Shown: piece by piece, positions 11,938 through 51,287 of the stretch
Position numbering within the stretch: position 1 is the first letter of the stretch
How the letters are laid out: each line of letters begins with the position of its first letter
DNA from: Candidatus Sulfomarinibacteraceae bacterium
Lineage (GTDB): Bacteria; Acidobacteriota; Thermoanaerobaculia; Thermoanaerobaculales; Sulfomarinibacteraceae
Assembly: GCA_963796455.1 (NCBI GenBank)
Contig: CAWCLO010000002.1
Coordinates: 32,001-96,000, forward strand
Length of the DNA stretch: 64,000 bases
Direction: 5' to 3'
Translations under genes and position numbers: made by a program
The notes under the pieces: generated by a model
Seen by the model: only the letters and a program-made list of their open reading frames with translations
Told to the model about the DNA's origin: nothing
Databases searched by the model: none

Positions 11938-11976
11938 TACGGTTCTCCCTTTCTCCCCTGCTCCCTTTCTCCCTTT
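11938..11976 (-). repeat. Dispersed (GGGAGAAA)n octamer repeat with TACGGTTCTCCCTTT anchor
   Basis: Inverted match to 50608-50648; a related tract lies at about 53845-53885. Confidence 0.7.
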
Positions 11977-12012
11977 CACCTCATCGGGAACGGAAACGGG
12001 ACGGTCGTTCAA

Positions 12013-12135
12013 GATGTCATCCTGAGCGAAGCGCCTTTGGCGCGAAGTCGAAGGATCTGCGGTTCGCGGATCTTCCGGTCCATCTCATAGATCCTTCGAC
12101 TACGCTCCCGGCGGAGCTCCGCTCAGGATGACATC
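12013..12135. repeat. REP-like nested palindrome (GTCATCCTGAGC...GCTCAGGATGAC type)
   Basis: Perfect 16-bp outer inverted repeat at 12013-12028/12120-12135 and 13-bp inner inverted repeat at 12046-12058/12089-12101. Confidence 0.85.
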
Positions 12136-12251: not shown

Positions 12252-12612
12252 ATCCAGCATCCAGCATCACTCTTGTCCAAGACAGAGTCTCGGATTGCGT
12301 TCAGGGGCAGCGGCAGCGAACAGTCACCAGCGGCAGTGTTCAGTCATCAGCGTCGGCGGTCAGTGGCCGGTACTCATTTCTTCGGGACTCCGCCCTTGGT
12401 GGTGCGGCCGTCTCGGCCGCACGTTGGGCAGGCGAGACGCCGACACCACAACGCCTGTTCCCTCTATTGAACGACCCGGAGGTGGTTCCGCCGTCACTGC
12501 ACCTGATTGCTGCCCCTGATCTCTGCCTCTGATCGCTGATCCCTGTCGCTGCCCCTGGACACTGTCGCTGCCGCTGCTGCTGTCCAGGACAAGAATGATC
12601 TTGCATCGAGGA
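12252..12612 (-). mobile_element. Non-autonomous copy A of the four-helix-bundle cassette, with the ORF almost fully deleted
   Basis: 12266-12354 is the reverse complement of 45138-45226 (about 7 mismatches in 89 bp). It keeps the gene's last codons (CCGAAGAAATGA, 12374-12385, minus strand) and the leader arm GAACGACCCGGAGGTGG (12469-12485). Ends are imperfect inverted repeats. Confidence 0.75.
12399..12449. repeat. REP-doublet-like palindrome nested inside cassette copy A
   Basis: GTGGTGCGGCCGTCTCGGCCGCA...GCAGGCGAGACGCCGACACCAC: two imperfect inverted units, each with an internal hairpin. Confidence 0.6.
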
Positions 12613-44104: not shown

Positions 44105-44352
44105 CTTCAGCGGCAGCGACAGTGTCCAGCGACAGCCACCAACGACCGCGGCAACCTCGGGTCTGACTTGTGTGGAGAGCTGAAATCACGACTATTGGTT
44201 GAGCAAACGCCAGGTCATGGGACGGACCTGATCACTGATTCCTGATCGCTGGCGCTGATGACTGAACACTGCCGCTGGCGACTGTTCACTGCCGCTGCCC
44301 CTGATCGTTGTCCGAGACTCTGTCTTGGACAAGCATGATCCAGCATCCAGCA
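44105..44352. mobile_element. Remnant copy B1 of the four-helix-bundle cassette
   Basis: Left arm CAGCGGCAGCGACAGTGTCCAG is the reverse complement of a tract at about 12556-12577. The minus strand at about 44192-44233 encodes DQVRPMTWRLLNQ*, matching the gene 3' end. 44253-44352 matches 45140-45239 at 97/100. Confidence 0.75.
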
Positions 44353-44570
44353 ACACTGCAGTCCAAAACAAATCGAAATCTGAAGTTGCCCGATTGACAA
44401 CGGGAGGTTTGAGGTGGGTCTTTGGCGTTTTCGTTTCGCGGTTGGCCCGTACCCGTTCCCGATCCCGAGTTGCAGCGACAGCGACAGTTTCCAGCGACAG
44501 CGGCAGGCAACAGCGAACAGGAACAGCGGTCAGTGTTCAGCGGCAGCGATCAGGAGTCCAATCGGCGAAG

Positions 44571-44710
44571 TGGCCACCTCCGGGTCGTTCCAAGGAAGGG
44601 GTAGCCGGTGGGCGGCCGATGTCAAGGACAGGCAGGGTGCAGGGCATCCTTGACATCGGCCGCCACACCGGCTTGTGGATATGGGCATGAACGACCCGGA
44701 GGTGACCATG
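44571..44710 (+). promoter_or_regulatory. Long 5' leader hairpin sequestering the RBS of the four-helix-bundle gene
   Basis: Perfect inverted repeats at 44575-44590/44689-44704 (16 bp, includes GGAGG), 44603-44610/44666-44673 (8 bp) and 44611-44628/44647-44664 (18 bp). Confidence 0.85.
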
Positions 44711-45061
44711 TCCAACGCCGCCACGAACACCAACCTCGTTGCCCACTCGAAAGCCCTCGAAGCAGCAGGAATCGCGATCAATCTGGTGATGAGGGTTCCG
44801 GCTCCGCTGAAGTCGATAGCCGATCAGGTGATCCGGTCGGCAAGTTCAGTCCCTGCAAACCTGGCAGAAGGTCACGGCCGAGTCGGTAGAGACCGGTTGA
44901 ACCACTGGAGAATCGCCTACGCCTCGGCCAAAGAGGTCGACAGCCACTGGATGCTCCTCGCCCACGCCGGTGCGATCAGTCGGAATGGTGCCAGTGAAGC
45001 AACGAACGCCTTCGATCAAGTCCGTGCCATGACCTGGCGGCTGCTGAACCCGAAGAGGTGA
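44708..45061 (+). CDS. Four-helix-bundle protein (23S rRNA IVP / Avd-like family), 117 aa
   Basis: DQVIRSASSVPANLAEG.GR and IAYASAKEV signature; GGAGG RBS. Confidence 0.9.
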   Translation: MSNAATNTNLVAHSKALEAAGIAINLVMRVPAPLKSIADQVIRSASSVPANLAEGHGRVGRDRLNHWRIAYASAKEVDSHWMLLAHAGAISRNGASEATNAFDQVRAMTWRLLNPKR

Positions 45062-45257
45062 GTGCAGTCTCTGCCCCGGTTGCTGGCCGCTGTCGCCGAC
45101 ATCTGTGCACTGCCGCTGATCGCTGGTTTCTGCCGCTGACGCTGATGACTGAACACTGCCGCTGGCGACTGTTCACTGCCGCTGCCCCTGATCGCTGTCC
45201 GAGACTCTGTCTTGGACAAGTATGATCCAGCATTCAGCATCCAGGATCGGCCGACGG

Positions 45258-50608: not shown

Positions 50609-50690
50609 GCAGGGGAGAAGGGGAGAAAGGGGGAAAGGGAGAACCGTATCTCGCGTGGCAGAGGAGCAGAGGAGCAGAGGGGCAGAGGGG
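50608..50690 (+). repeat. Octamer tandem repeats (GGGAGAAR)n and (GCAGAGGR)n
   Basis: Read directly from the sequence; the first tract is an inverted match to 11938-11976. Confidence 0.75.
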
Positions 50691-51287
50691 CTCGATTCTC
50701 GATGCTGGATCACTCTTGCCCAAGACAGAGTCTCGGATGGCGTTCATGAACAGTCCTGAAGGTGGGCCAAGGCCCACCTTCAGAGTTGTTTCCAACATCC
50801 TGGATTACTCGTGCCCGGGTGCGAGTTTCGGACAGCGATCAGGGACAGCGACGGGGAACGGCAGACAGCGTCAGCAAACAGGAGTCAGCGGCAGCGACCA
50901 GCGGCCGGGGCAGCGACAGCGCCAGCTAACACCAATCACTCCGTCGGGTTCAAGAACCGCCAGGTCATGGCACGGACTTGATGCCTTCATCGCTTCACCG
51001 GCTACCCCTTCCTTGGAACGACCCGGAGGAGGCCACATCGTCGCCTGTACTCCTACCCGCTGCCACTGAACGCTGAACACTGATCGCTGTTCTCTGTCGC
51101 TGGCGCTGAACACTGCCGCTGCCCCTGCCCCTGCCGCTGCAAATCGGGATCGGGAATTAGTACGGGCCAACCGCAAACCGGATATGCCAAAAACCAACCC
51201 GTAAATCACGTGTTGTCGGGTGGGAACCTTCAGGTGACGACCTGTTTTAGCCAGCAGTGATCCGGCATCCAGCATCGAGCATCGAGC
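50691..51287 (-). mobile_element. Internally deleted copy C of the four-helix-bundle cassette
   Basis: Reverse-complement homology to 44380-44610 is fused directly to the gene's 3' end (CAAGTCCGTGCCATGACCTGGCGG). Terminal inverted heptamer tracts (CTCGATGCTGGATCACT / AGTGATCCGGCATCCAGCATCGAG). A perfect 13-bp hairpin is nested at 50756-50783. Confidence 0.85.

Follow-up and report, generated by a model that had tools for sequence, protein, structure and literature searches.

An IS4-ended, transposase-less cassette family in a Candidatus Sulfomarinibacteraceae genome carries a four-helix-bundle gene behind a predicted single-strand promoter

Introduction

Four-helix-bundle genes of family PF05635 are common, and apart from Avd no role is given for them in the cited parts of PMC4990558 and PMC10053308. 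One known setting is the ORF-bearing 23S rRNA intervening sequence (S23p; PMC4990558), which has the protein family, the fold, and a gene framed by inverted repeats in common with the locus described here, and for which the discussion of that paper proposes a mobile-element origin. A second is Avd of the diversity-generating retroelements (DGRs), likewise a basic protein of the four-helix fold (TM 0.76–0.79 to our model; 10.1101/2023.10.23.563531; PMC10053308). Two further systems resemble the locus in its DNA. Mobile insertion cassettes of the MIC231 type (IS231/IS4 family) have, as outlined in PMC6199540, two IS4-family inverted ends, a cargo gene and no transposase, fall within 0.7–3 kb, and are likely mobilised in trans. 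The Frpo/ssi promoters of F and ColIb-P9, as described in PMC9849209 and 10.1101/2023.02.15.528439, are stem-loops directly upstream of a gene that are predicted to form a -35/-10 duplex when single-stranded.

We analysed a 64-kb stretch of DNA (the window) from a Candidatus Sulfomarinibacteraceae genome (G000) and the family of elements to which one of its loci belongs. By its ends the element is a mobile insertion cassette, and its core is unaccounted for by that class. Relative to MIC231 as described in the cited parts of PMC6199540, the present family has ~220 loci, its cargo is under purifying selection yet recombines freely among copies, and in sister species the same cargo travels between ISL3 ends or without any IS ends; relative to IS231, the ends fit the IS4Sa signature (CA------T, 8–10 bp repeat; PMC2266710). 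In design the core would work like an Frpo-led gene, but it lies outside any conjugative leading region: compared with the cited accounts of Frpo/ssi, the leader is chromosomal and dispersed among ordinary genes, and its predicted promoter retains only -12T/-11A of the -10. Unlike the 23S intervening sequences of PMC4990558, the window copies sit between protein genes with no rRNA match around them and have IS ends, target duplications and a promoter-like leader. Unlike the Avd/DGR systems of the cited reports, the protein is only 7–9% identical to Avd and comes from a genome without a detected reverse transcriptase and without adenine-biased mutation. We class the element neither with the rRNA intervening sequences nor with the DGRs. 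In the literature searched, which mostly lay outside subscription journals, we found no paper describing this gene family as a mobile unit in many copies; leaders of this kind might be listed in the supplements to the Frpo survey. With dozens of copies in each genome, well-defined ends, a strong signal of selection and a leader from which the time of expression can be predicted, the family makes the role of PF05635 testable.

Results and discussion

Structure of the cassette

The full cassette occupies 44354..45224 on the plus strand (871 bp) and is bounded by paired termini. It is flanked by a 9-bp target duplication whose left copy (44345..44353, within a heptamer tract) matches the right copy (45225..45233) at 8/9 bases. 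The first-pass annotation had recognised this copy and missed its left end at 44354, so that the unit is now 44354-45224 with its duplication; it had also counted the heptamer tracts among the parts of the element, which we reassign to the insertion target outside it. The left end (44354..44450, plus) comprises a 19-bp terminal repeat and ~80 bp more, and corresponds to the end that, in autonomous IS4 elements, follows the transposase on its downstream side. Across the family its 19-bp terminus is that of the autonomous IS4 elements L061 and L046, and 18 bases match the same-genus IS4 L081. The right end (45191..45224, plus; terminal repeat 45206-45224) corresponds to the end upstream of the IS4 transposase.

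Between the ends lie a 5' hexamer arm, (CAGCGN)n, at 44472..44553, a palindromic leader at 44572..44710, the 117-aa four-helix-bundle gene at 44708..45061, and a 3' hexamer arm, (NCGCTG)n, at 45070..45190, all on the plus strand. The position of the ORF between the two arms had been described correctly, and the ORF matches PF05635/TIGR02436; its product is basic (14 K+R, 8 D+E).

The proposal that the gene is looped out of a stem formed by the arms agrees with the predicted fold of 44335-45245, in which the arms pair (z -5.7, 0/20 shuffles). The pairing is not specific to the copy, though. A copy's own arms paired at -107.6 kcal/mol, against -107.3 for arms taken from other copies and -71.4 for shuffled arms, and the comparison of own with other copies' arms in G000 (p 0.39) gave no sign of the covariation that had been anticipated. 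Elsewhere p was 0.89 in G006, 0.27 in G014, 0.85 in G017 and 0.03 in G008. We therefore rejected a copy-specific arm RNA stem, since own arms pair no better than those of other copies; the arms are complementary in composition only.

Copies within the window

Three further window copies had been listed, and all three exist, with the right end, heptamer tracts and last codons in common. The first leader arm is retained, as reported, in the copies at 12.3 kb and 50.7 kb. The deletion derivative at 12268..12597 (minus) consists of an arm, the first leader arm, another hairpin in place of the original centre, the last codons, an arm and the right end; its other end is truncated. A 549-bp deletion derivative at 50711..51259 (minus) has both ends, a leader fused to the last codons and an extra hairpin in its 3' part, and its flanks differ at 3/9 bases. 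The piece first given as 44105-44352 is a family copy as well, although it proved to be a separate rearranged derivative (44105..44337) with its gene end inverted and no left end. At 44105-44233 (minus) it has the 3' end of the gene, inverted, and the arm belonging to it; fused to these, at 44247-44337 (plus), are a 3' arm and a right end that are 96% identical to the main copy.

An exact empty site was sought at the window loci and none was recovered: the lolA orthologue occurred in 1/24 genus genomes, on a contig ending 58 bp past the gene. At the site equivalent to 50.7 kb, G004 has another gene and no element.

Other repeats share these gaps. Just left of the 12.3-kb copy, a long REP-like palindrome from a different repeat family occupies 12015-12135, and its type recurs beside other family loci. 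Purine-rich heptamer/octamer tracts of other sequence occupy 11950-11980 and 50610-50690. These intergenic gaps act as hubs for several repeat families.

Family size and distribution

BLAST with the four window copies returned 250 clusters in the 5.0-Mb genome, and module profiles resolved 220 loci covering ~99 kb, or ~2% of the genome, so the search for copies beyond the initial four found a far larger family. A gene piece was present in 113/220 loci, with both gene halves nearly complete in 65, and the remaining 107 had no gene piece. Most loci are deletion forms, which supports the MITE-like derivatives proposed from the window. There were 59 ungapped full-length PF05635 genes, 58 of them intact; because these were chosen as ungapped, about six more carry indels. 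The statement that all copies sit between convergent genes held for all three window sites, while genome-wide it is only a tendency: 75/207 loci (36%) lay in convergent gaps compared with 325/1915 gaps >100 bp (17%), using a crude gene caller and leaving out 13 loci far from called genes.

Of the genomes drawn from the same genus, 15/18 had related genes; G006 gave 52 matches and G004 gave 45. Named records sharing the family's end belonged to Ca. Sulfomarinibacteraceae (Acidobacteriota), and in a phylum sample 1/150 other genomes had a match at E 1e-25. One contig from an outside DNA run, possibly not independent of the assembly, covers both the right end and the gene next to it and shows one difference over 179 bases.

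Copies in G000 are old, with a median pairwise difference of 11% and 0/1711 identical pairs, and those in G006 are young, most nearest neighbours being 0–6 bases apart. Among 90 loci of relatives, 43 mapped to a syntenic gap in G000, of which 24 were empty and 19 occupied. Where orientation could be compared (n = 10 occupied gaps), the gene faced the same way in 3 and the opposite way in 7, which points to independent insertion into favoured gaps; we rejected inherited copies on this basis, with hotspots the more likely explanation.

Rearranged forms were also present. The core was inverted relative to the IS4 ends in 5/113 gene-bearing G000 loci and right ends stood on both sides in 3 more, as expected from recombination between the arms. 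Seven partial G000 copies begin at codon 57. Here a recurrent deletion has fused the 5' leader arm with codon 57, its junction lying in a short stretch of sequence common to both, and a near-identical joint occurred in contigs of two DNA runs.

Ends, target duplications and mobilisation

The termini are imperfect inverted repeats of IS4 type. Among 82 elements with paired termini, 76 were left-right and 6 right-right pairs. The search for target-site duplications was positive: an exact 9-bp direct repeat flanked 21/82 elements, against 2.8 with shuffled partners, and allowing one mismatch raised this to 40/82 against 8.9. Outside heptamer tracts 9/26 elements also showed the 9-bp repeat. The target consensus was AT-N5-AT, which the heptamer tracts offer every 7 bases. 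These tracts exist apart from the element, because 63/132 had no terminus within 40 bases. In G006, both IS4 ends were present in 30/34 fetched copies and exact duplications in 16.

The longest paired element was 895 bp, and the sole ORF in the cassette is PF05635, with no transposase. Candidate enzymes were found in relatives. L061 is an autonomous IS4 of 1372 bp with an exact 9-bp duplication, and its transposase and that of L046 exceed the NF033592 cut-off. L081, in G017 of the same genus, encodes a transposase 56% identical to that of L061, has matching ends, and adjoins a heptamer tract. A matching IS4 transposase occurred in only 1/25 genus genomes, and none was found in G000 (90.5% complete), which counts against a borrowed enzyme. 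We nevertheless regard past transposition in trans as very probable, which upholds the initial description of a multicopy, transposase-less element that is likely mobilised in trans and whose sole cargo is a protein of the Avd/IVP fold. The single DDE transposase match in G000 was considered as mobiliser and set aside, as it has other ends and its best score, IS1182/IS5-like, is below the cut-off.

The description of the family as a structured-RNA element defined by the arm stem was not supported. Its ends, like its target duplications, are of the DNA-transposon kind, no reverse transcriptase and no adenine-biased mutation was found, and the conserved structure is the leader, with its DNA-promoter hexamer bases. 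A suggested search for reverse transcriptase returned 0 PF00078 matches in the genome at 90.5% completeness. As mobiliser such an enzyme was rejected: none was found in G000 or G004, and G001, where three matches occurred, has just one match to the gene, a weak one.

A REP-associated HUH (RAYT-type) transposase could instead have moved the core, as in REPINs. HUH enzymes act on single-stranded hairpins, the family is palindromic, intergenic and enriched between convergent genes, and the genome has six Y1 transposase matches. However, the nearest family locus lies 7.6–42 kb from each Y1 match, the insertions in G000 bear DDE-type duplications, and the G004 copies have no common terminal motif (best 12-mer in 6/30 loci). 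We consider a RAYT-driven core highly improbable.

Two other sets of inverted-ended elements were seen. In G000:C7, L020:1290-2670 holds an IS1182/IS5-like transposase gene that has inverted ends of its own and no relation to the family. Named Sulfomarinibacteraceae (L021-L079) contain IS4-ended MITEs of 246–388 bp that show 9-bp duplications and carry unrelated REP-like hairpins as cargo.

Age of the core

The core consists of the hexamer arms, the palindromic leader and the four-helix-bundle gene. It predates its present IS4 vehicle, because in relatives this core is found between ISL3 ends or without IS ends. ISL3-type ends stood on both sides of 9/12 copies in G014, 9/12 in G008, 3/4 in G005, 4/6 in G016 and 2/8 in G017, and G017 also contains an autonomous ISL3 with the same ends; the apparent 8-bp duplications of these ISL3-ended copies lie within repeat tracts. 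Neither end type was present in 22/24 G004 copies with long flanks, and 18/18 metagenome loci with long flanks were without IS ends. Conversely, spread by IS4 needs neither leader nor gene, as 11/34 G006 copies had no parsable leader (in two read by eye the centre is replaced) and 107/220 loci in G000 are geneless.

The leader as a predicted promoter

The covarying part of the element is the 140-nt leader. Its outer stem (44572-44590 with 44689-44708) contains the ribosome-binding site and encloses an internal bubble and a spacer stem. TTGACA occurs on both arms, at 44620-44625 on the minus strand and 44650-44655 on the plus strand, and the spacer stem varies freely yet stays paired. A -10-like TA lies at 44602-44603 (minus) and an upstream in-frame ATG at 44687. 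The arms are asymmetric in the TA. Among distinct leaders (124/149 parsed), TA stood 16–17 nt past the -35 on the outward arm in 109/113 and on the gene-facing arm in 0/113. A separate metagenome set (41/49 leaders parsed, from 80 loci) gave 36/39 outward and 1/39 gene-facing, and leaders with non-redundant spacers (169/198 parsed, 29 unparsed) gave 66/71 and 1/71; the pairing score of this last set is inflated, as the mirror -35 was chosen by pairing. The -10 retains -12T and -11A (66/71); the near absence of -7T (2/66) counts against a promoter. The upstream ATG lies 12–15 nt from -12 in the non-redundant set and is kept in frame in 58/59 G000 copies.

Folded as DNA, the minus strand of the leader had a z of -11.6. 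In the predicted structure the TA arm is the non-template strand, -11A is unpaired, and the bubble ends 12–15 nt later at the in-frame ATG, which is the geometry of an open promoter complex. Our model, which we hold to be probable, is that the leader acts as a promoter only once the DNA is single-stranded and folded, and that read-through RNA would be locked against translation.

The leader might instead act as RNA. Read-through transcripts would then form a long hairpin that masks the ribosome-binding site and is a target for binding or processing, in the manner of rRNA intervening sequences or Avd-bound RNA, and the element would be an RNA-protein unit. Its outer stem does bury the ribosome-binding site, leader covariation fits RNA as well as DNA, and Avd binds RNA stem-loops according to the cited part of 10.1101/2023.10.23.563531. 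Yet what stays invariant is TTGACA and the TA, set at the spacing of a promoter, whereas the paired spacer varies freely. By inspection, the plus strand showed no preference for G-U pairs over A-C mismatches, no Rfam family reached threshold (the one weak match was far below it), and neither G000 nor G004 yielded a reverse transcriptase. We judge an RNA role unlikely.

Another reading would be an ordinary IS4 cassette or MITE with scooped-up intergenic repeats, its gene kept by host benefit and gene conversion and its leader either a weak double-strand promoter that faces outward or a switch that can be inverted. The IS4-ended MITEs of named relatives, with their unrelated hairpin repeats, and the preponderance of deletion forms speak for it, as does one flipped leader among 39 from metagenomes. 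That leader, L251, is the sole exception to the asymmetry: the whole leader is flipped, with the TA arm toward the gene and the upstream ATG lost, and a second leader lies upstream. An outward promoter, however, has no need of a mirrored -35 or of a spacer that pairs, a switch should show mixed states where we found 0/113 and 1/39 flipped, and the G004 core is multicopy without IS ends. An ordinary cassette is improbable on this evidence, and we retain the single-strand promoter as the preferred reading of the leader.

Counting against a single-stranded phase of the core, IS4 transposition is cut-and-paste, and we found no clear replication-strand bias: copies with the 5' gene half numbered 44 leading and 29 lagging, partial copies 17 and 23, and host genes 2098 and 1794. 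No circle junction occurred among the joints listed, and a single-stranded intermediate was not detected; contigs of seven DNA runs likewise held no empty-site or circle joint among the rows listed and are uninformative about absence. No RNA data set was among the sequencing runs listed as containing the sequence. The leader could also prime second-strand synthesis, because RNA-polymerase-primed single-strand origins are known from rolling-circle plasmids (as described in the cited part of PMC5714925).

L181, a distant relative from another family, has a similar hairpin of different sequence with CA instead of TA.

Protein fold, selection and recombination

The protein is predicted to fold into four helices (pLDDT 93), and the model matches both XCC0516 and BT_0352 at a TM of about 0.83, next to the values for Avd given above. 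From its homologues we assume that the protein would be a pentamer.

The gene is under purifying selection, with dN/dS of 0.16 and 0.14 among the 59 copies and 0.11–0.24 in nine other genomes. Changes common to several copies had a pN/pS of ~0.16, and private changes were near neutral (67 amino-acid-changing, 38 silent and 1 stop, against ~73–77, 26–31 and 3 expected). Resident copies are thus weakly constrained, and the selective filter likely acts mainly on alleles that spread. There was no adenine-biased (DGR-like) mutagenesis among private changes, whose frequencies per base were 0.26 for A, 0.38 for C, 0.28 for G and 0.32 for T.

Among 148 genes (one dropped for an indel) the 59 copies group as a single clade, yet within it they are short-patch recombinants. 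Linkage (r2) drops from 0.21 to ~0.03 within 40 bp, and the incompatibility test gave 0/1000 permutations in G000. A 3-base change at codon 3, carried by 23 copies, required 18 steps on the tree of the rest, where shuffling gave a mean of 18.0, and similarity of the ends was uncorrelated with similarity of the gene across 28 copies. The recombination signal recurs in G006 (p 0.002) and G014 (p 0.003), which argues against an assembly artefact.

Proposed mechanism

On balance we favour, with some confidence, an IS4-borrowing cassette that carries an older core with a fold-back promoter. A borrowed IS4 transposase likely pastes the 871-bp cassette around the genome. In double-stranded DNA the gene would be off, because the gene-facing arm has a -35 box and no -10, and because read-through RNA would bury the ribosome-binding site. 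Once the minus strand is folded, TTGACA, a paired 16–17-bp spacer, the TA and a ready bubble of ~12–15 nt would start RNA at or near the upstream ATG. If this is true, a dispersed chromosomal single-strand promoter extends such promoters beyond plasmid leading regions.

The least certain step concerns the protein. A basic, Avd-like protein made in a single-stranded phase would help core DNA persist and would aid its recombination into repeat-rich intergenic sites; protein-aided recombination of this kind would explain both the selection on the gene and the mosaic copies. That the protein acts in a single-stranded phase and in recombination is a tentative proposal. We offer as a possibility, and a somewhat doubtful one, that the core is an enzyme-less selfish gene living through a single-stranded DNA phase, in which the leader would be both promoter and single-strand origin, the Avd-like protein would chaperone the strand into hexamer arrays via short-patch recombination, and the IS4 and ISL3 ends would be occasional vehicles. 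Were that so, PF05635 would gain a function, and the rRNA intervening sequences and Avd would be offshoots of the same element.

Distant relatives of the gene

A distant paralogue (33% identity) at G000:C10:733028-733321 lies between inverted hexamer arrays of other sequence and is without IS ends or this leader. Viral contigs contained 7 distant loci, and the hairpin of this leader was absent from the six leaders folded. In L173-L178 the distant four-helix-bundle genes lie head-on inside phage structural regions, and inverted heptamer arms frame the gene in the three contigs whose downstream side was read.
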